A stretch of 64,000 bases of DNA from positions 38,443-102,442 of the IMG/VR virus record IMGVR_UViG_3300042934_000619; one strand, written 5' to 3'. Shown here piece after piece: positions 22,632 to 64,000 of the stretch (positions within the stretch are counted from its first letter, which is position 1; each line of letters starts with the position of its first letter). Origin of the DNA: a virus. The translations under genes were made by a program, and so were the position numbers. The notes beneath the pieces were generated by a model, which was given only the letters and a program-made list of their open reading frames with translations, had not been told where the DNA came from and made no database searches.

Positions 22632-24314
22632 ATGGCGCGCTTCAACTCGCGTGGACACCGGGCGAAGCCTGCGGTGGCGACGGTAAGCAGTCCGATCGGT
22701 ACTGCCACGAAGAAGGCGAACACCCGTACGTTCGAAGGCGGCGCGGGATACACGCGTGATGCCAAGACGGAGCTGTTCCTGCGTGCGACCGGTGCGTTCC
22801 ACGGCGGCGAGGGCAGCTTCTACGAGTCCGCCGACAAGCGCGACAACCGGCTTCGTGAGCTGGTACGTACGATCGCGATCGAAGACCCGGACTGGGGATT
22901 CGAGTTCGCGCGCTGGCTCCGGTCCGAGGGTCACATGCGCACGGCATCGCTGATGTTCGCCGTCGAGTACGTGCACGAGCGACTCGATGCGGAAGCGCAG
23001 GAGCCGCGCACCACCAAGTACACCAACCGTCAGATCATCGACGTCGTATGCCAGCGTCCCGACGAGCCTGGCGAGATCCTCGCGATCTGGACGGCGTGGT
23101 ACGGGCGGAACATCCCGCAGTCGGTCAAGCGCGGCGTCGCCGACGCGGTTCGGCGTCTGTACAGCGAGCGCTCGCTGCTCAAGTACGACACGGACTCGAA
23201 GGCGTACCGCTTCGCCGACGTGCTGGATCTGACGCACCCGACGCCGTCCCCCGAGAAGGCCGCATGGCAGGGCCTGCTGTTCTCGTACGCCCTCAACCGG
23301 CGGCACGGACGTGGGGATGACATCCCCAGCACGCTGGATATCATCCGCAACAACGCCTCGTTCCGAGCGCGGGCGGCTGAGACGCACTCGTTGCTGTGCT
23401 CGCCGGACGCTCTGCGTGCAGCGGGCATGACGTGGGAGGACGCGCTGTCCCTCGCGGGCCAAGTAGGCGTCGACAAGCGCAAGGTCTGGGAGGCCATGAT
23501 CCCCTCCATGGGGATCATGGCGCTGATCCGCAACCTGCGGAACTTCGACCAGGCTGGCGTCTCCGACGAGGTGGCCATGACGGTCATGGAGCGCCTGGCC
23601 AACCCCGAGGAGATCGCCCGGTCCAAGCAGTTCCCGTTCCGGTTCCTCGCCGCGCACCGCGCGACCAAGGACTCCCTGCGGTGGGCGTGGCCGCTGGAGC
23701 AGGCGCTTGGTCACTCGCTGGTCAACGTCCCCCGGCTCGACGGCCGGACGCTGATCCTCGTCGACCGGTCGCCGTCCATGTTCCCGGAGTACGACCACTG
23801 GTTCCCGACGCTGAAGAAGTCGGACATCAGCCGCGCCGACCAGGCTGCGGTGTTCGGCGCCGCGCTGGCCGTCCGTGCAGAGCAGCCGACGCTCGTGGAG
23901 TTCGGCGGCGGCTCGCGGGTGATCACCTTCCAGCGCGGTACGTCCGTGCTGAAGCTGGTCGACAAGTTCTACCGGGACCCGGGTACGGACATCCCGAGCG
24001 CGGTGAAGAAGCATTACGACGGGCACGACCGGGTCGTCATCCTCACCGACGAGCAGACCCGCCCCGGGTCCCTTCCGTCGAACATGTGGCGGAGCTACGG
24101 TGGCATGCGTGAGACGGAGGTCAACGACCTCGTCCCGAAGCACGTCCCTGTATTCATGTGGAATTTCGCCGGTTACTCGGCGGCGGCCATGCCGTCCGGG
24201 AACGAGGCGCGGTTCCACCTCGGCGGACTCACCGACAAGGCATTCCAACTCATTCCGATTCTGGAATCCGGAGTGAATGGCAGCTGGCCCTGGGAACTGG
24301 ACAGCACACCCTGA
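22632..24314 (+). CDS. rsr: Ro60/Rsr TROVE-domain RNA-binding protein
   Basis: N-terminal EGGAGY, ALIRNLRNF, SKQFPFRF; C-terminal vWA with VDRSPSM, GTD, ILTDEQ; 560 aa. Confidence 0.9.
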   Translation: MARFNSRGHRAKPAVATVSSPIGTATKKANTRTFEGGAGYTRDAKTELFLRATGAFHGGEGSFYESADKRDNRLRELVRTIAIEDPDWGFEFARWLRSEGHMRTASLMFAVEYVHERLDAEAQEPRTTKYTNRQIIDVVCQRPDEPGEILAIWTAWYGRNIPQSVKRGVADAVRRLYSERSLLKYDTDSKAYRFADVLDLTHPTPSPEKAAWQGLLFSYALNRRHGRGDDIPSTLDIIRNNASFRARAAETHSLLCSPDALRAAGMTWEDALSLAGQVGVDKRKVWEAMIPSMGIMALIRNLRNFDQAGVSDEVAMTVMERLANPEEIARSKQFPFRFLAAHRATKDSLRWAWPLEQALGHSLVNVPRLDGRTLILVDRSPSMFPEYDHWFPTLKKSDISRADQAAVFGAALAVRAEQPTLVEFGGGSRVITFQRGTSVLKLVDKFYRDPGTDIPSAVKKHYDGHDRVVILTDEQTRPGSLPSNMWRSYGGMRETEVNDLVPKHVPVFMWNFAGYSAAAMPSGNEARFHLGGLTDKAFQLIPILESGVNGSWPWELDSTP

Positions 24315-49553: not shown

Positions 49554-49841
49554 ATGACCATGACGCTCGCGGATCTGCGCAGGAAGGCTGGGCTTTCCCA
49601 GGCGCAGATGGCAAAGAAGATGGGCGTGAGCAACACGCAGGTGAGCCGCATCGAGGCCAGCTACCCGGACGTCATGTTCCCGTCACTGCGGCGGTACATG
49701 GACGCGCTCGGCACGACGATCAAGTTCGTGGGCATTGAGACGGAATGCGACTCCGACGACGTCGAGAAGGACGCGACCCGTATTTACGGAGAGACGAGGC
49801 GACAGGATCCGACTCGTGCGTTCGGCCGCAAGAGCGCCTGA
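49554..49841 (+). CDS. XRE HTH protein, antisense within packaging module
   Basis: LADLRRKAGLSQAQMAKKMGVSNTQVSRIE; AAGGAG RBS. Confidence 0.8.
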   Translation: MTMTLADLRRKAGLSQAQMAKKMGVSNTQVSRIEASYPDVMFPSLRRYMDALGTTIKFVGIETECDSDDVEKDATRIYGETRRQDPTRAFGRKSA

Positions 49842-56207: not shown

Positions 56208-56332
56208 TTTGCCCGTTATGTCGGAATTCTTTAGAGGTTCGTGGAGGGTGCAAAAATCTTGAGGGACCGCGCGCCCGGCCATGATCATTTTCGAGGTAAC
56301 TGTACGTAGCGGTAACATAGCTGTGAGTAGTC

Positions 56333-56502
56333 GCTCATATGAGCAGGGGTGCTGCTCGTATGAGCGCTCACATGAGCAGACATCCGCTCCTTTGAGCCAA
56401 TGCCGGTTCACGCTCAGTTGCGTCACCCTGCGCTCACATGAGCGGCATGCCGGTTCACGCTCAGTTGAGCACGGGCATGCACACCGGAGCGCTCAAACGA
56501 GC
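56333..56502. repeat. Array of GCTC-N4-GAGC palindromes
   Basis: Copies at 56333, 56354, 56366, 56386, 56432, 56459, 56491. Confidence 0.75.
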
Positions 56503-56574
56503 ACGACCATACTCATACGTCCGTTATACGCCCGTTACCTTCGCGTTACGGTTACGAGACCAACGACCCTATAT

Positions 56575-56717
56575 ACTGGGGTCACCCCAAGGGGGAGGTT
56601 CCCTCCCCCAGCGGGGGACTCCCGGAGGGAAGGGCCGAAAGGCCCGGACCGAAGGGGGGACAGGACCCCGGGGCTCTGATAGACTGGGGTCACCCCAAGG
56701 GGGAGGTTCCCTCCCCC
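56575..56717. repeat. Exact 35-bp direct repeat, two copies
   Basis: ACTGGGGTCACCCCAAGGGGGAGGTTCCCTCCCCC at 56575 and 56683. Confidence 0.85.
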
Positions 56718-57229
56718 GAAGGGTCTGGTTCCCTATGGAAGGAGAGTGGTTGGCCCCCCGCGTGCGGGAGTGCGCCGACGTATGCCGACCTGGCACAGCG
56801 CCAGGAGTCTCCTCGGCTTGTGCGGATTGGCTTCGGCCGGTCCATTGAGAACTGAACAGCGTGCAATATGCCCATACCGAGACACGTGTGTCTCGTATGC
56901 GTGAGTTCCCTATGACTTCCGCAATCACCGGCGGGACGAGGGACCCTGTAACCCCGTGCCCCATAGTGCGGGATAAGGGACCGACAGAACCCCCAAGGTG
57001 GGGTTGGGTGTCGAGAGAACCTGAGACCCCGGAGTGATCGGGTGAGGATACCCGTGTGTCCAAGAGGGCGCATGGTCAGGGTGCTATTTCAGACCACTCA
57101 TGCATGCGCGCGTCAATCCGGGTTCGCACATCACTTTGCTTACGTGCGATCGGCCCTCTAGCCCTGACGCCTCTAACGGTTACGACTGTGGTGGTGCGGG
57201 ATGACGTACTCGCCGGATAACCCCCTGTA

Positions 57230-57473
57230 GAACGGAGGCCCGGACGGCAGTCATTCGCTAGCTGTGGCCAATGGGCGAAAACGCCAACTTACCTCCCCGG
57301 AATACCTCGCAAGTTGAACGGGGGGAGGGGTCTTCTCTGCGTAGCGGAGAGGCCGGTGGGGGAGCGTAAGTCTGGGATGACTGCCTGCGGGTTGTAAACC
57401 AGTGACTCCCCCGTTCGTAAGGTGGCGAACGGTGTGTGACCTTTCCCGTAGGGAACGTGTGTCGCCTCCGTTC
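57230..57473 (+). ncRNA. Candidate large structured RNA or leader
   Basis: Nested long-range helices 57230-39/57464-73 and 57246-56/57375-85 plus several hairpins. Confidence 0.45.
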
Positions 57474-57507
57474 GCCCCTTGAAGGGTGACAATCGGAAGG
57501 ATGCGCT

Positions 57508-58551
57508 ATGCGCAAGTTGGCAACTAGTCCGGTTCCTCCGCTGCCTCGCTATGGGACAGCCAAGGGGACCAGTGCGCGCATTATGCCGCGTACGATCAAG
57601 AATGAGGTCCGTGCGCCCCGGTGGTTGGGTTACGCCACTGGCAAGGGACACGCGTTCCTCGTTCCGGCCGGACCGATCGACCGTGACACCGTCAAGGGCG
57701 TGTGCGGTCGCGTTATGGAAGCTGGACGGCTCATCCCGTCCAAGGGTGAGCGCTGCAAGACGTGCTCGTCTGCCATGGCGGAGGACACGCGTAAGCGTGG
57801 CACCGGCTTGACCGAACCGACTGTCGACATTGTTGACACCGGGTCGGCCAAGGGTGACCCGCGCGAGGCGGAGTTGCGCCGTAGGGCGGAGTTGGCTCCG
57901 TTGTCCGGCGACGCTGGTGAATCGAATGCGGAGATTGTTGCTTCTCTCCGTTCGGGCGACAAGAAAGCGGCGATTGCGGACGCCCGTAAGTTGGATGCGC
58001 GCTCTCGTGAGCTGCGGTCCAAGGGGCGTAAGGGTCCCGTTCCGGTAGCGGAGCGTGCCCCGATCGGCAATCGGGATCATGGCGCAATCGATGGCGTGGC
58101 CATGGTTCAGGGACCGAACATGAACGGGAATGAGGGTGCGCTCACCAATTGGACGCGTCCCGCGCTCCCGAAGGGTGGTCTGCCAGCGTGCCTCGATGGG
58201 GCACCGATGGCGGAGGACAACCCGGACGCTCCCCGTCGGACGTGGCGTAATCCCGCTACGGGTGAGATTGAGCCTGCATCTGCGCGGCTTGACGGCTCCC
58301 TGCGTGAGCGTGGTGACCGCGAGATCGTCGAACGGGTTGACCGTGATGGTTTCCGGCTGGAGACCGCTAAGCGGACTAAGGCGTCGAAGCGTCGGCACCG
58401 TGCGCGTAAAGTCGCGGAGCGAAAGCTTCGGGAGCGCATTGAGGGCCGTGGGGAGAAGTTCGTCCCCAAGGGGCGCATGGTCGACCCGGTGCAGGTGGAG
58501 TTGAAGCGTTTGCGTAAGGGCGGCGCCGATCTCCCCACCCATGGGTGGTAG
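57508..58551 (+). CDS. Basic hypothetical protein
   Basis: 347-aa ORF, H..C..CKTC in N-terminal part, Arg/Lys-rich C-terminus. Confidence 0.6.
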   Translation: MRKLATSPVPPLPRYGTAKGTSARIMPRTIKNEVRAPRWLGYATGKGHAFLVPAGPIDRDTVKGVCGRVMEAGRLIPSKGERCKTCSSAMAEDTRKRGTGLTEPTVDIVDTGSAKGDPREAELRRRAELAPLSGDAGESNAEIVASLRSGDKKAAIADARKLDARSRELRSKGRKGPVPVAERAPIGNRDHGAIDGVAMVQGPNMNGNEGALTNWTRPALPKGGLPACLDGAPMAEDNPDAPRRTWRNPATGEIEPASARLDGSLRERGDREIVERVDRDGFRLETAKRTKASKRRHRARKVAERKLRERIEGRGEKFVPKGRMVDPVQVELKRLRKGGADLPTHGW

Positions 58552-58937
58552 TTCCGGGCAGTGGTTGGACCGTAGGGGCACCGTTTCAGAACGGTGTCCC
58601 TACGGTGTTTCAGGCCGTCCGGTCTGACAGCAAGGGGAGAGATATGTTCAGGCGTTCGTGGATCAGGGTGACTGTCGACGGGGAAACGCGTCGCGTTGTT
58701 TTCGAGCGTTGCCCGCACTGCTCTCGTGGCACTCGGGTATGGGTGCCGGACGGGTTCAGGCGCCGTATGGCCGGGCACGTCCTCATGGGCCGGGGCAACG
58801 GTTCGGAGGCTGTGATCAACGCTGCGTGTCCGGGTGACGTGAGCGTACGGATGGCATACGGCATCGTGAGGCGTGGCCCGTACCGCACGGCCACGTTCAT
58901 GCGGTCGGTGCGGTCGGTCGTCGCGCTCATGGACTAG
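58545..58937 (+). CDS. Hypothetical protein (start possibly downstream)
   Basis: CPHC motif. Confidence 0.45.
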   Translation: MVVPGSGWTVGAPFQNGVPTVFQAVRSDSKGRDMFRRSWIRVTVDGETRRVVFERCPHCSRGTRVWVPDGFRRRMAGHVLMGRGNGSEAVINAACPGDVSVRMAYGIVRRGPYRTATFMRSVRSVVALMD

Positions 58938-59294
58938 GTCCTGCGTGGTCACGTTTGGGGGTGTCTGTCTCGTACAGGCACCCCCCCCCATGCATGACCA
59001 GGGAGGAATGCGTATGTGGGTTGCCATCGTGGTGATGGTCGGGGCTGGAGTCGCGCTCATGGTCGCGATTGCTGTCACGCCGAACGACAACTAGGAAGGG
59101 AATGGCGTGTTGGTTCTGAAGGACGACATTCCGCAGGTCGTGATGGTTGAGGCTCGTGGTTGGGTGTCGTTCGTTTCGGAGTATGTGCCGTAGGGGTGTT
59201 CTGGTGTCCGGGGTGCATGTTCCACGTGAAACATCGTGGGCGTGCATTCCCGGTCTCGGCGCATCGCTGAGTGGTGACGGTCGGAGGGTGAGAT

Positions 59295-59738
59295 ATGACG
59301 GTGGCGTTGGCGACGGCGGTCCCGTATCCGGTAGTTGGGTTGCCGGGTGTGGCGCTCATGTGGGGGCCTGTGTGCCTCGATCATTGGCGCGTGACGGACC
59401 GTCCGACGGACGTGACGCGTGCGAGTGCGGAGAGGTTCGCGCACGCGATGCAGTGCACGAACGTGGACCACGGGCACGTGGACGCGTCCGGGTGGCACAA
59501 GCGGGTCGCCGGTGTGGTCGGGTGTCTGCACTGTGAGGACGGCTCGTTCGCGTCAGGGCATTACGTGTGCACGCATGGTGCGCCGTGCGATGACTGCATG
59601 GATGCCGGTGTGTCGGCGGCGGAGAACATCGCGGCGGGGTACGGCGCGAACGGTGAGGACACCGACGACGAAATGTACTACGACGACAGCTCATCCAACT
59701 ACGCATCGTGCGGATGGGACGGGCCGATCGAGTACTGA
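59295..59738 (+). CDS. Cys/His-rich hypothetical protein
   Basis: GGAGG RBS. Confidence 0.55.
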   Translation: MTVALATAVPYPVVGLPGVALMWGPVCLDHWRVTDRPTDVTRASAERFAHAMQCTNVDHGHVDASGWHKRVAGVVGCLHCEDGSFASGHYVCTHGAPCDDCMDAGVSAAENIAAGYGANGEDTDDEMYYDDSSSNYASCGWDGPIEY

Positions 59739-59830
59739 CGCGCGCAACGTCCGGGGTGCATGTTTCACGTGGAACATGCACGCCCGGTCCTGGCGTGCGC
59801 TGGGAATGGTCAGCGAAGAGAGGGGCTGTT

Positions 59831-60091
59831 ATGGCGCGCAGCATCGACTACCCGACGGGTAACCCGAACGGGATGTCGTTCATCTGTAATCGGTGGGTGT
59901 TCACGGGGCCGGAGGGGTACCGGGTGCAGTTCGTCGATGGCGAGGGTGACGCGCGATGGGGCGTGTTCCGGTACGACGGCGCGTACACGCATCGGGCGTA
60001 CATCAAGCCGATGGCGGAGGACGACGCGCACGCGTTCGCGGCGCGGTTGTCGGGCCGTCCGGTCAACGTGGCGCAGGAGGTGACGGCATGA
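59831..60091 (+). CDS. Hypothetical protein
   Basis: GAGGGG RBS. Confidence 0.55.
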   Translation: MARSIDYPTGNPNGMSFICNRWVFTGPEGYRVQFVDGEGDARWGVFRYDGAYTHRAYIKPMAEDDAHAFAARLSGRPVNVAQEVTA

Positions 60092-60519
60092 TCATTGAGT
60101 ATGCGGGCCCGGCTGATCGTTCGGCCGGACCGGGGTGGATCCACAAGGCACGCGCCTGGTGGAACGTCCACACCGACGATCAGGGTGAGGTGAGGCGCGC
60201 GGTGCTCCGCGCCGTCAAGGCGGCGGTACCGGAGGACAGCACGGTCACGTTCGTGTCCTGGCACATGGACACGTCCACGCACCCGACGATCAACGCGTGG
60301 CCGAGTGTACGGGTGCTCGACGCGGAGAGTCAGCGGCTGCGCAAGGTGGTCGCCCGTGCATGCGACTTCTGTTCCAGTCCGAACCCGTGCAACTACCTGC
60401 GCATGCCGGACAAGAGCAACAAGGCGGCGTGCTTCACGTGTTTGCGTGGTGAGCAACTGGCCGCCGTGCGCTACGTGACCGTCGCATGGATCAAGGCAGA
60501 CGGCACGTTGCAGATCTGA
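60088..60519 (+). CDS. Hypothetical protein with Cys4
   Basis: GGAGG RBS; CDFC..CFTC. Confidence 0.55.
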   Translation: MIIEYAGPADRSAGPGWIHKARAWWNVHTDDQGEVRRAVLRAVKAAVPEDSTVTFVSWHMDTSTHPTINAWPSVRVLDAESQRLRKVVARACDFCSSPNPCNYLRMPDKSNKAACFTCLRGEQLAAVRYVTVAWIKADGTLQI

Positions 60520-60603
60520 CCGTGCGGGTTCGGGGCGCAGTGTTCCACGTGAAACATCGTGCGAGCGCTGCGCCCAGTGTCCACACGGAAGGTGACAATC
60601 GAC

Positions 60604-60819
60604 ATGACGGAATTGAAGATCGAGCGCGTGCGCAGCGTGCTGTGGGTGACGGTGATATGCCCCGTGAGCAAAAGCAAGGGCGCGTCGGCGTCGGCGGACA
60701 AGGCGGCCCGTAAGTGGGTGCAGGAGAACAAGGGGTATCGGCAGGCGTTCCGGCGGTCGTCCAGTCAGACGTCCGGTGCGAAGGGGTTCCACTACCGGGC
60801 GGCGTTCGCCTTGCACTGA
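60604..60819 (+). CDS. Small basic hypothetical protein
   Basis: RBS and ORF. Confidence 0.5.
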   Translation: MTELKIERVRSVLWVTVICPVSKSKGASASADKAARKWVQENKGYRQAFRRSSSQTSGAKGFHYRAAFALH

Positions 60820-60893
60820 CCTGGTCGTGCGGGTCGTGGGCTCAATGTTTCACGTGGAACATTGGGTCCCCTGTCCGCATGGATGAGAGGAGA

Positions 60894-61370
60894 ATGATCA
60901 TGTTCACGATCCACAAGCGTCCGCAAACGCGTATCGGCACCGATGGCGTGGTGCGCGAGGTACCGGGTGAGACGCGCACGATCACCACGTCGATGGGGCT
61001 GCTGAGGTTCGCGCTGCGGGAGCGGCTGTTCACCCACCGCACCGGCGGCCGTCCGTACCCGGCCCGGCCGGACAATGTGCACTTGGGGCGTGAGGGTGCA
61101 CCGACGTACGGGCTGTTCGACCCGCTCAAGCGGTGGGAAGTGACGTACGACCACGTTGAAGCGATGCGCCGTGCGCAGCGCGCGTACAACGAGCGCATGC
61201 ACTACCGGCGGGAGGTCGCGCCGATGTGGCGTCCGGACACGGAGTACGCGGGCAACGAGTCGGGTGTGGTGCACTACGCGGACAACTCGACCGTCCAGTA
61301 CGAGATCGACAAGGATGGTAACCGGCGTCACCGGACGATCATCGCGCCGGGTGGGGACGCCTGTTTCTAG
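60894..61370 (+). CDS. Hypothetical protein
   Basis: GAGGAG RBS. Confidence 0.55.
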   Translation: MIMFTIHKRPQTRIGTDGVVREVPGETRTITTSMGLLRFALRERLFTHRTGGRPYPARPDNVHLGREGAPTYGLFDPLKRWEVTYDHVEAMRRAQRAYNERMHYRREVAPMWRPDTEYAGNESGVVHYADNSTVQYEIDKDGNRRHRTIIAPGGDACF

Positions 61371-61383
61371 GGAGGGATAACCC

Positions 61384-61797
61384 GTGTTCGGGTACCGCAT
61401 GTGCACGGCGGAGGATGAGCAGTACGACCTACGACAGCTGTTCGCCTCCGCCATGGACCACCGCGCACCGGTGCGCGTGTCGTACTTCAAGCAACTGAAG
61501 CGGCCGGACCGGGCGATCGTTCCGGGTCAGTACGTGAAGGTGACGCGCGTGGTCGAACCGTTCGATTTCGACGTGGCGAAGATCGGCGCACGCATCGTGC
61601 GCGTGGTGGACCGCACCCCTGATGGGGTGTGGGGTCCCGCGTACCGGGCGATCCGGCTGGACCGGGTCGCGTTCAGCCGCAGCACGGGCAAGCCGTTGGC
61701 TGTCCGGCTGCTGTCGCAGGGGTTCATCTGTCCGACGCTGTTGGACGGTAAGCCGCTGCATTCGACAAAGCGTGTGCTTACCGCACGCGCGGCGTGA
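61384..61797 (+). CDS. Stand-alone WYL-domain-like protein
   Basis: VRVSY...TRVVEP...IVRVVDR...YRAIRLDRV. Confidence 0.6.
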   Translation: MFGYRMCTAEDEQYDLRQLFASAMDHRAPVRVSYFKQLKRPDRAIVPGQYVKVTRVVEPFDFDVAKIGARIVRVVDRTPDGVWGPAYRAIRLDRVAFSRSTGKPLAVRLLSQGFICPTLLDGKPLHSTKRVLTARAA

Positions 61798-61826
61798 CAA
61801 ACCGAAGGTGACAGGAGACAGCAGGA

Positions 61827-62246
61827 ATGATGAACCACAAGGCGCGCCGTGCGCGCACGGGTCTGGCGTTCGGCACGGTCACCGGCCTGTTCCTGGGGCT
61901 GGCAGCGCTGTTCAGCGCGTCCGCCACGGAGGGGGCCGCGTCCACCGTGTCGAAGGTGAGCATCTGCGAGACCGGGTTCCCGAGCGACCCGGACTACGCG
62001 GCCGAGTGCATGAGGGACGGCACGAGGGAGGACGCTGCCGTCCTGTGGTACTTCGGCTACTCCGACGCGCAGCGCACGGCCGACTGCCGTACGGGGCGAC
62101 GCACGGGCGACCTGATCGGTGTGGTGCGTGAGACGCGCGGCGACGTGATCACGGACAACTTCCGCAACGGTGAGCAGATGATCCGCTGGACGGCGCGCAT
62201 GGGTGTGGCCGACTGCGAATCGCTCGGTTTCGGCGACGTCCGCTGA
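61827..62246 (+). CDS. Secreted or membrane-anchored protein
   Basis: Basic N-terminus, hydrophobic helix, ASA cleavage-like site; 4 Cys. Confidence 0.6.
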   Translation: MMNHKARRARTGLAFGTVTGLFLGLAALFSASATEGAASTVSKVSICETGFPSDPDYAAECMRDGTREDAAVLWYFGYSDAQRTADCRTGRRTGDLIGVVRETRGDVITDNFRNGEQMIRWTARMGVADCESLGFGDVR

Positions 62247-62264
62247 CAACCAGGAAGGGGAACG

Positions 62265-62528
62265 ATGATGTCCCGACGCAAGAGCCTGCCCACCCTGCAC
62301 GGGCGGGACGACGGCGTGATCATGTTCCGATCACGCCTGCTCGTCGACGAGAAGGACGGTGCCGACCTGTGCACGGCACTCGACCGCATGGTGCGCAGTC
62401 ATCCGCGCATCGGTGACGCGGTGATCCGCATGGGCGGGTGCGGTGGTGCGAGCGCGTATGTCAACGCGCTCGATTCGCTGCGCACGTACGAGAGCACCGG
62501 CGTGGCGATCGTCCCGCTGCGTCCGTAG
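62265..62528 (+). CDS. Hypothetical protein
   Basis: RBS and ORF. Confidence 0.5.
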   Translation: MMSRRKSLPTLHGRDDGVIMFRSRLLVDEKDGADLCTALDRMVRSHPRIGDAVIRMGGCGGASAYVNALDSLRTYESTGVAIVPLRP

Positions 62529-62623
62529 TACCTGAGCGTCCCGCTTCGGGGCGTCTCCACGGTCACGTATGTTTCACGTGGAACCGTGGGGGCGTCCCCG
62601 TGGCACGGACGATAGGTGTATCT

Positions 62624-62821
62624 GTGATCAAGTCGAGTCGCATCCCCAAGGGGTGGGAGTTCGTGTCCATAGATCACGGATGGGAGGCGGCATGGTCAAC
62701 CGCGATGCGCTTCAAGCACGAGCGCGAGAGGCTGCGGCCCGACTTGTTCGTCCGCGTCAAGGTGGTCCCGTCGGGGAGCACCAACGTGTGGTGGATCTTG
62801 AAGAAGGAGGAGAGCAGATGA
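62624..62821 (+). CDS. Small hypothetical protein
   Basis: ATGA overlap with next gene. Confidence 0.45.
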   Translation: MIKSSRIPKGWEFVSIDHGWEAAWSTAMRFKHERERLRPDLFVRVKVVPSGSTNVWWILKKEESR

Positions 62822-63072
62822 GCGCCGAGGTGAGCCGCGTACTGTCCATCGACCCCGATGCGCAGCATCTGGAATTCCGCGCCAACGCTTGCCGGGAGTG
62901 CAACGAGTACAGTCCGCTGACCACGATCGACAACCCCTCCTGGAGTGTGTGGTTCGACGTGCACTCGCGCGAGACCGGGCACCAGAAGTTCTATCAGCTC
63001 AAGGTCGAGCGCAGCATGGGCGAGATCCACACCATGCCGAAGCCGAAGCGCCGGATGCTCGGCCAGCGCTGA
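62818..63072 (+). CDS. Hypothetical protein
   Basis: GGAGG RBS; CREC..H..TGH. Confidence 0.5.
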   Translation: MSAEVSRVLSIDPDAQHLEFRANACRECNEYSPLTTIDNPSWSVWFDVHSRETGHQKFYQLKVERSMGEIHTMPKPKRRMLGQR

Positions 63073-63119
63073 GAAACAAGCACGCGTGATTGTTTCACGT
63101 GAAACATGGAAGGCAGGAC

Positions 63120-63329
63120 ATGGGAGTCACCGAAGAACTGAAGGCGCAGCTCGACACGCTTGAGCTGGTGTACGCCGACCTGACCGACGGGCGTGCGCTG
63201 GTCGTGGCGCAGGAAGAGGGCCGGTACGTCTTCGCCGACGGCGCGACCGCCCGTAACCTGCCGGACGCCGTGGACCAGGGACGCGCACTCGTGCGGTTCG
63301 CGATCAACCAGATGCGCCAGTCGGCGTGA
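63120..63329 (+). CDS. Small hypothetical protein
   Basis: ORF between two parS sites. Confidence 0.5.
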   Translation: MGVTEELKAQLDTLELVYADLTDGRALVVAQEEGRYVFADGATARNLPDAVDQGRALVRFAINQMRQSA

Positions 63330-63370
63330 ATGTTCCACGTGAAACATCGACAGCCCAGGAAGGCGACAAC

Positions 63371-63871
63371 ATGACCGACACCCTCACCGTGGAGATCCCG
63401 CTCGAAGTGCGGGACAACTCCGAGACCGTGACCGACTACGCGTTCATGCGGCACCGCTCCCCGGGCCGGGGCGTGGTCACGGTGGTCGACCGAGACCGCT
63501 CGATCGACCTCTGTACCGCACTCCCCTCCCTCCAGTACACGCACCACCAGTGGCACGACACGAACCAGCGGAACGGCCAGCGTTGCCGCTTCGACATGAT
63601 CGTCAGCCACACCGGGCACGTGGTGTACCTGTTCCACACGGAACTGTGGACGCGTGTGGCCTGCCACATGGGCGACGACTGCTACTACTACGCCGCCTAC
63701 TACGTGCGCGAGGACGACCCGCGCGAGGAGATCGAGGACCAGCGTCCGTTCTGCGACGAGCACACCGCCGAGATCATCGGTGCGCCGCTCGTGCTCACGC
63801 AGGACAGCTACATTCGCGACGACGGCATCGCGGTCCGCCTGTCCGAGCGTCTGCTCGTCGGGCAGCACTGA
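63371..63871 (+). CDS. Hypothetical protein
   Basis: RBS GGAAGG; 166 aa. Confidence 0.55.
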   Translation: MTDTLTVEIPLEVRDNSETVTDYAFMRHRSPGRGVVTVVDRDRSIDLCTALPSLQYTHHQWHDTNQRNGQRCRFDMIVSHTGHVVYLFHTELWTRVACHMGDDCYYYAAYYVREDDPREEIEDQRPFCDEHTAEIIGAPLVLTQDSYIRDDGIAVRLSERLLVGQH

Positions 63872-64000
63872 CCCCGTCACCTCAAGCCGAGCACCCCGCC
63901 ACCTCTCCCCGGCGGGGTGTTCCCTTGACCTGACGGCGCAATGTTCCACGTGAAACATCGACGAAAGGACACCGCATGCCGGTGAAGGAATGGATCATCG

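Follow-up and report, generated by a model that had tools for sequence, protein, structure and literature searches.

The chromosomal ParB protein (Spo0J) binds parS as a dimer and loads onto DNA as a CTP-dependent sliding clamp. Among mobile elements, the extrachromosomal Cluster A mycobacteriophages encode ParA as well as ParB and use a non-chromosomal parS of their own, and plasmid RK2 has many copies of one palindrome (OB) among its genes, which are read by the plasmid-encoded KorB, a CTP clamp of the ParB family. That a phage can have host-type parS and no parB is already established: phi29 and Nf of Bacillus are examples, and the host Spo0J brings phi29 DNA, which has five sites, into the prespore (Meijer et al. 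2005, as related in PMC2731898). SGI1 carries only parS sites and uses the parABS of its IncC helper plasmid (PMC10954446). Actinobacterial chromosomes have 21 parS sites in S. coelicolor, 10 in C. glutamicum and 3 in M. smegmatis (PMC7022226). Here we describe an array of chromosomal-type parS sites in the putative early region of an uncultured phage, G000 (IMG/VR record IMGVR_UViG_3300042934_000619, 102,442 bp), starting from a stretch of 64,000 nucleotides (bases 38443-102442 of the record), referred to as the window. We consider the chance somewhat better than even that the array is a set of host-ParB loading sites that acts as a phage centromere.

The array has features in common with each of these systems and matches none of them. 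Like phi29, G000 has host-type parS and lacks parB. Unlike phi29, which has five sites, a 19-kb protein-primed genome and no known ParA, the clade of G000 has 14-32 sites in genomes of ~100 kb. In addition, its sites form a single, co-oriented array at junctions between genes of the early arm, relatives of G000 add a Soj-type ParA, and the host is probably an actinobacterium. The array shares with the chromosomal ParABS of Actinobacteria the same 16-bp sequence, the same tolerated variation and the clustering of sites, and the relatives have a chromosomal-type ParA; however, the phage sites are ~100-fold denser, are without parB and are not known to adjoin an origin. As in SGI1, the phage carries parS only and would rely on the ParB and ParA of another replicon, but SGI1 exploits a plasmid system and has few sites, whereas the phage sites are of the chromosomal type. 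In having one palindrome repeated many times among its genes, the phage resembles RK2 with KorB and OB, but no ParB-family gene, and hence no KorB-type regulon, was found in it. The Cluster A mycobacteriophages are likewise actinophages tied to partition, whereas the array clade lacks ParB and has chromosomal-type parS. We know of no counterpart of the Spo0A box in the array phage.

We scanned the window for TGTTTCACGTGAAACA, allowing up to three mismatches, with dinucleotide-preserving shuffles (n=100) as the null. There were exactly eight matches where 0.13 were expected, and none of the 100 shuffles reached eight. The copy at 63091 is perfect, six others differ at a single position, either 5 or 12, and the copy at 62570 has two mismatches. 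All eight lie between open reading frames (ORFs), as judged from the ORF list and from gene boundaries read by hand, including those of two micro-ORFs before site 1. The first-pass annotation, made from the sequence of the window, had reported these eight positions, the perfect copy at 63091, the placement between ORFs and the lack of any further full copy in the window, all of which held up in the scan. It had also proposed a motif scan of the whole genome and its relatives, which extended the array in G000 and revealed the arrays of the relatives described below. It had missed the extension of the array beyond the window, the long GC-rich hairpins capped by five of the eight sites, and the shared orientation of sites and transcription. 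In G000, six further sites lie past the end of the window (genome 327, 851, 925, 1391, 1699 and 2234). The first and last 127 bases of the record are identical, presumably as the overlap of a circular assembly, which would make the genome 102.3 kb; because of this overlap, site 8 of the window is the same site as that at genome 69-84. In total, G000 has 14 unique sites in ~7 kb, spaced roughly every 0.25-0.8 kb. The remaining 95 kb have none with up to three mismatches (a lone four-mismatch match is noise), and half-sites outside the array are not enriched (26 observed, 26.5 expected).

Three complete relatives with arrays were identified by scanning IMG/VR for the exact pattern and by searching with the major capsid protein: G001 (116.7 kb, 24 sites), G002 (104.3 kb, 32 sites) and G009 (111.6 kb, 20 sites, counted as matches to the 14-mer core). 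In two fragments, G011 (5 sites) and G010 (1 site), the sequence ends at or near the array. The four array-bearing complete genomes come from different samples, and their major capsid proteins are 76-83% identical. Of the 176 called proteins of G000, 54 are common to it and each of G001 and G002; synteny extends over the structural arm, with terminases 74-76% identical, and most of the genes between the sites differ among these three. None of 25 more distant relatives (major capsid protein 53-65% identical, 30-122 kb, 12 of which CheckV rates as 90% complete or more) has a single site. The array is a conserved trait of one clade of ~100-kb phages and is kept while the neighboring genes turn over. 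A short-motif BLAST against isolated phages returned phi29-like phages and no cultured phage with an array, in a survey that the E-value limit for 16 nt makes incomplete. Separately, in small viral contigs of ~11 kb from IMG/VR sample 3300045988 (L111, L131, L142, L119 and L082), the parS 16-mer occurs in pairs ~40 bp apart near one or both ends, and the size of these contigs suggests phi29-like phages that use the same strategy.

The sites of the clade vary in the same way as chromosomal parS. Site statistics were taken from the 70 sites of G000, G001 and G002, 67 of which are asymmetric. Positions 2-4, 6-11 and 13-15 are invariant in all 70, and variation is found only at positions 1, 5, 12 and 16. 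All 70 fit TGTTNCACGTGAAACA, the published parS consensus for B. subtilis and C. glutamicum (PMC7022226), at all 14 constrained positions, and the 20 sites of G009 match the 14-mer core exactly. We compared these with 98 chromosomal parS sites that lie within 3 kb of parA, taken from 64 of 80 bacterial loci. In the chromosomal sites, variation is concentrated at position 1 (T in 76%) and position 5 (T in 77%, C in 23%) of each half-site. The flanks of the phage sites are partly symmetric: 60/70 have A at -1 and 61/70 have T at +1, in many cases as part of CGA...TCG, and TCG is the commonest flank of the chromosomal sites too (8% vs ~1.6% expected). Because the same positions vary and the same flank is preferred as in chromosomal parS, the phage sites carry the constraint profile of ParB binding, beyond mere resemblance. 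A chance match at all 14 constrained positions is not credible. Both the fit to the consensus and the shared variable positions agree with the initial identification of the 16-mer as chromosomal parS.

The sites fall into two classes, and those of the window, all given here on the plus strand, include both. In the hairpin class, which comprises window sites 1-5 and all five sites of G011, parS caps GC-rich hairpins of 45-65 nt with folds of -30 to -44 kcal/mol (z -3.9 to -4.9); the stems differ in sequence and the pairing is kept. Site 1 (59218..59233, TGTTCCACGTGAAACA, one mismatch to the perfect palindrome) is at the apex of a hairpin of ~55 nt (~59198-59262, -33.3 kcal/mol, z -4.4). Site 2 (59761..59776, TGTTTCACGTGGAACA) is flipped and at the apex of ~59742-59800 (-37.0 kcal/mol, z -4.5), site 3 (60541..60556) is at the apex of ~60523-60585 (-36.8 kcal/mol, z -3.9), and site 4 (60846..60861), again flipped, is at the apex of ~60827-60880 (-30.6 kcal/mol, z -4.9), with a right flank similar to that of a hairpin-type site of G011. 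Site 5 (62570..62585, TGTTTCACGTGGAACC), which is flipped and altered at position 16 and so has two mismatches, lies within a long hairpin (~62543-62604, -44.2 kcal/mol, z -4.2). These large hairpins could be terminators without a U-tract, RNA stabilizers or cruciform-prone DNA. A further hairpin with 17-bp arms (58569-58606), after the ORF at 57508-58551, has the apex CCGTTTCAGAACGG and looks like a shortened, non-functional parS.

The junction class comprises window sites 6-8 and nearly all sites in the relatives. These are bare palindromes of 16-22 bp, wedged between a stop codon (often abutting the TGA) and the next ribosome-binding site (RBS), and they end 9-30 nt before the start codon. 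Site 6 (63091..63106), the perfect palindrome, is 18 nt past a stop codon and 13 nt ahead of the next ATG and has no significant fold. Site 7 (63331..63346) begins 2 nt past a TGA stop, with an RBS and an ATG 24 nt downstream, and site 8 (63942..63957) lies within the 127-bp assembly overlap. The asymmetric sites have a strong orientation bias: C is at position 5 on the sense strand in 64 of 67, so that they are co-oriented with the genes. The three flipped sites are all of the hairpin class and all in G000, and the hairpin sites of G011 are perfect palindromes. As RNA, the dominant orientation folds at -1.3 kcal/mol, the flipped one at -5.3 and the perfect palindrome at -5.8. We infer that positions 5 and 12, where alone the interior of the palindrome varies, are set to weaken an mRNA hairpin ahead of the RBS, save where a hairpin is wanted, and that the DNA site itself is fixed by its binding protein.

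Some sites of the relatives lie within ORFs. In G002 (L058:5282-5651, minus strand), an ORF of ~190 codons with a G+C content at third codon positions (GC3) of 0.81 passes through three sites, each of which is read as DVPRETS. Its middle module of ~65 residues is homologous to a module in G001 (L056), also flanked by in-frame sites, without an RBS or start codon of its own. Because the sites persist as in-frame DVPRETS linkers inside ORFs, where parS can serve neither as a promoter nor as a translation signal, conservation of the DNA sequence does not depend on gene signals. The DVPRETS linkers and the orientation bias show the strength of selection on the DNA site.

A canonical ParB or ParA had not been seen in the window at first pass, and searches with Pfam and a ParB profile now extend this to the whole G000 genome. 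Pfam ParB_N had no match in G000, G002 or G009 and only one of 12 bits (E 0.018) in G001, far below the cut-off, and HTH_ParB gave only sub-threshold matches to generic Xre-type helix-turn-helix (HTH) proteins. A custom profile from 53 ParB proteins of bacterial parAB loci, run with all filters off on the six-frame ORFs of G000, G001, G002 and the array part of G009, reached E 0.33 at best. A search for mimics of the ParB N-terminal peptide, G[LIVM]G[RK]G[LIVM], gave one match, in a frame not called as a gene. ParA (AAA_31 or CbiA) had no match anywhere in G000.

The three complete relatives do encode a ParA. It has 265-279 residues, matches AAA_31 at E ~1e-62, has an intact deviant Walker A motif and lies inside the array, with sites on both sides; the three copies are 66-71% identical. 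Its best cellular matches are chromosomal (Soj-type) ParA proteins of Actinomycetota (50-60% identical), mostly followed by parB, and the matches are spread at that identity over Propionibacteriales, Micrococcales and Acidimicrobiia metagenome-assembled genomes. No such ParA was found in 18 array-less relatives, and tblastn against isolated phages found no actinophage relative. Thus no genome has a complete ParABS locus, with ParA and ParB on one replicon: G000 has neither protein, and G001, G002 and G009 have ParA only. The same three relatives encode a tyrosine recombinase of 351-396 residues far from the array (G001:26046-26627, G002:72241-72810, G009:18101-18673); in G000, neither a tyrosine nor a serine recombinase was found. 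The split in ParA and recombinase suggests that clade members differ in lifestyle, some being temperate or plasmid-like and others lytic.

Host ParB most likely binds the array, and it is the expected loader because the phage encodes no ParB. After entry, a dimer of host ParB (Spo0J) would bind the 14 sites, load as a CTP-dependent sliding clamp and spread over the early region, forming a partition complex like that at the host origin. This complex would be the cargo for a ParA ATPase, the host's in G000 and the phage's Soj-type protein in the three sister phages, and would probably also recruit SMC. This would let the phage genome be placed or partitioned in the manner of a small chromosome, perhaps in a non-lytic or delayed state such as a carrier, plasmid-like or spore-entrapped one, for which phi29 with host Spo0J is the precedent. 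For G000, these steps of ParB, ParA and SMC are proposed by analogy with the established biology of ParABS. That the purpose of the array is partition or positioning of phage DNA we rate at a little under an even chance. The first-pass annotation had listed positioning or segregation as one of four purposes and had chosen none; we favor it over the others because the relatives keep a Soj-type ParA within the same array.

Several points weigh against a centromere. G000 lacks both the ParA and the tyrosine recombinase that are present in its three complete relatives, and since it has no ParA of its own, partition in G000 would need the host ParA or may be vestigial. The link between ParA and the array counts as a single evolutionary event, as all array genomes are from the same clade. 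An array of 14-32 sites, set at gene junctions, is more than a centromere requires. The near-uniform orientation suggests a directional reading of the sites, for which hairpin avoidance, as an alternative account, is only inferred. Lastly, a 95-residue Xre-type HTH protein (window 49554-49841) is encoded in 4/4 array genomes and in 0/14 array-less relatives.

Host ParB might bind the array for another purpose, to which we assign a modest chance. In one variant the array is a sink, and replicating phage DNA draws ParB (and SMC) off the host origin, disturbing segregation, division or sporulation. In the other, the clamps form a coat that silences, insulates or shields the early region, for which KorB on RK2 and ParB on P1 are models of silencing. 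One phage copy, with its 14-32 sites, equals or exceeds a whole actinobacterial chromosome with 3-21 (PMC7022226), the sites are restricted to the early arm and occupy nearly every gene junction at a density far above the needs of a centromere, and G000 keeps the array without a ParA. However, an intact ParA, needless for a sink or shield, is retained in the array of three of the four complete genomes, and no sigma-70-type promoter overlaps the sites, so no specific repression target is visible. There is a smaller chance that host ParB serves as both centromere protein and governor of the early genes, with one continuous complex that secures inheritance via ParA and silences or insulates the lytic early genes as KorB does. 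It is decidedly improbable that the reader is instead encoded by the phage, either the Xre-type HTH protein or an unrecognized ParB- or KorB-like protein that uses the sites as operators, in which case the match to parS would be mimicry or coincidence. The HTH protein is clade-specific, and most early proteins have no known fold, but neither Pfam nor the custom profile found a ParB-like domain, and a palindrome upstream of the array, GCTCAyATGAGC, is a better candidate operator. Moreover, identity of the HTH protein between genomes is no more than 38-49%, and it is an unlikely reader because its recognition helices differ while the sites are identical across genomes, with the constrained positions invariant in 70/70.

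We give very little credence to the array as a directional transcription or RNA signal, whether an early promoter read by a phage factor or an ECF-type (extracytoplasmic function) sigma factor, a start-associated sequence, or a hairpin for RNA processing or stability. Nearly all asymmetric sites point with the genes, the junction sites lie just upstream of an RBS, five G000 sites cap strong hairpins, and TGAAAC resembles a -35 box. Yet the dominant orientation is the one with the weakest RNA hairpin, the flanks are partly symmetric, G011 uses perfect palindromes, the distance to the start codon varies, and neither an RBS nor a start follows the in-frame sites inside ORFs. Among the scanned proteins, none was recognized as a phage RNA polymerase or sigma factor, and a sigma-70 consensus scan found no promoters, with terminators at chance level. 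An ECF-type promoter with TGAAAC as its -35 was rejected, there being no conserved -10 at a fixed distance and the RBS and start codon occupying the -10 and transcript-start positions; a promoter or start-associated class was rejected on the variable spacing, the palindromic G011 sites, the sites within ORFs and the lack of sigma-70 promoters. Equally hard to credit is that the sites, as identical direct repeats of 16-22 bp, serve as recombination points at the boundaries of early-gene modules, for which integron attC sites and lambdoid boundary sequences would be analogues and not homologues. Gene content between the sites turns over fast while the sites stay, protein modules are fused across sites, a phage recombination module is present, and three relatives have a tyrosine recombinase. 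This account, however, leaves unexplained both the parS identity at the constrained positions and the ParA within the array, and the recombinase is missing from G000 and distant from the array in the relatives. An integron-like cassette array was likewise rejected: no IntI-type recombinase is adjacent, and the sites are parS-identical palindromes without attC architecture. Recombination between the direct repeats probably adds to gene turnover, as a side effect and not a function.

G000 is a tailed phage of ~102 kb. It encodes an HK97-type capsid protein, a portal, a ClpP-type protease, a terminase, long tail proteins and an amidase endolysin, together with genes for replication and nucleotide metabolism (PolA, an SNF2 helicase, PrimPol, an SF1 helicase, ThyX and a dCTP deaminase) and a recombination module (a PD-(D/E)XK nuclease, AAA_24 and DUF669). 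A protein with a Ro60/TROVE domain is encoded at 22632-24314 (Pfam E 2.5e-21). The nearest isolates are remote: Streptomyces phage Dagobah for the major capsid protein (52% identity), and Gordonia (GodonK), Arthrobacter and Microbacterium phages for PolA (39%). Neither megablast nor blastn found DNA similarity of the region to isolated phages. Because the nearest isolate proteins are those of actinophages, the host is probably an actinobacterium. The first-pass annotation had mentioned Streptomyces and hyphae; nothing in the sequence points to either in particular, and the evidence reaches the level of actinobacteria only.

The structural genes of G000 run leftward, and a long rightward arm of small ORFs is headed by a non-coding, repeat-rich control region of 1.3 kb (56210..57500). 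The array starts 1.7 kb into this arm, with site 1 lying 1.7 kb downstream of the control region. The rightward arm fits an early region from its gene layout. Cumulative GC skew gives no origin signal beside the array, and we therefore make no claim that the array is proximal to an origin. Within the control region, the palindrome GCTCA(y)ATGAGC, which is 12 bp long and different from parS, occurs in 4-5 copies spaced 33-66 bp apart (56329-56503); these look like operators of a phage regulator, or iterons. At 56400-56467 and 56571-56717 there are two exact copies of the 21-mer ATGCCGGTTCACGCTCAGTTG and two copies of a 39-nt unit that has a -10-like TATACT or TAGACT followed by short GC hairpins; these repeats may represent tandem promoters or small RNAs. 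Past the control region, the first ORF (57508-58551) encodes a basic protein of 347 residues with no Pfam or PHROG match; its GC3 is unusually low, and the GC3-based gene caller passed over it. Just before site 1 (59015-59193), two micro-ORFs, each with an RBS, encode a hydrophobic peptide of 26 residues and a peptide of 27 residues. Rfam returned only a spurious miRNA match over 55.5-64 kb of the window.

The twelve array ORFs of the window are small and co-directional (all on the plus strand), have an RBS and a GC3 of 0.8-0.9, and are split by the sites into groups of 1-4. In order, they are at 59295-59738, 59832-60083, 60088-60519, 60604-60819, 60900-61370, 61384-61797, 61827-62246, 62265-62528, 62624-62821, 62818-63072, 63120-63329 and 63371-63871. 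None of the ~20 array ORFs of G000 has a Pfam or PHROG family above threshold, and homologues in the relatives were found only for the last of these twelve, an ORF of 166 residues, and a few other array ORFs.

We found no description of parS arrays in actinophages in the literature searched. Relative to phi29 and Nf, what is new is the number of sites, their co-oriented placement at gene junctions, including the in-frame sites, the hairpin-capped class, and an orphan ParA of chromosomal type in the sister genomes. The evidence that phages use host chromosome segregation rests mainly on phi29 in Bacillus, and the clade described here commits to it far more heavily. If host ParB loads on the array, these phages would offer a natural experiment in the action of ParB-CTP clamps, ParA and probably SMC on a foreign replicon, and the array could serve as a compact, portable ParB-loading cassette for actinobacteria. 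If ParB is also the governor of the early genes, then the virus has handed part of the decision between lysis and carriage to the chromosome-segregation machinery of its host. More broadly, the array could be a sign that soil actinophages have a carrier or plasmid-like way of life that has gone unnoticed.

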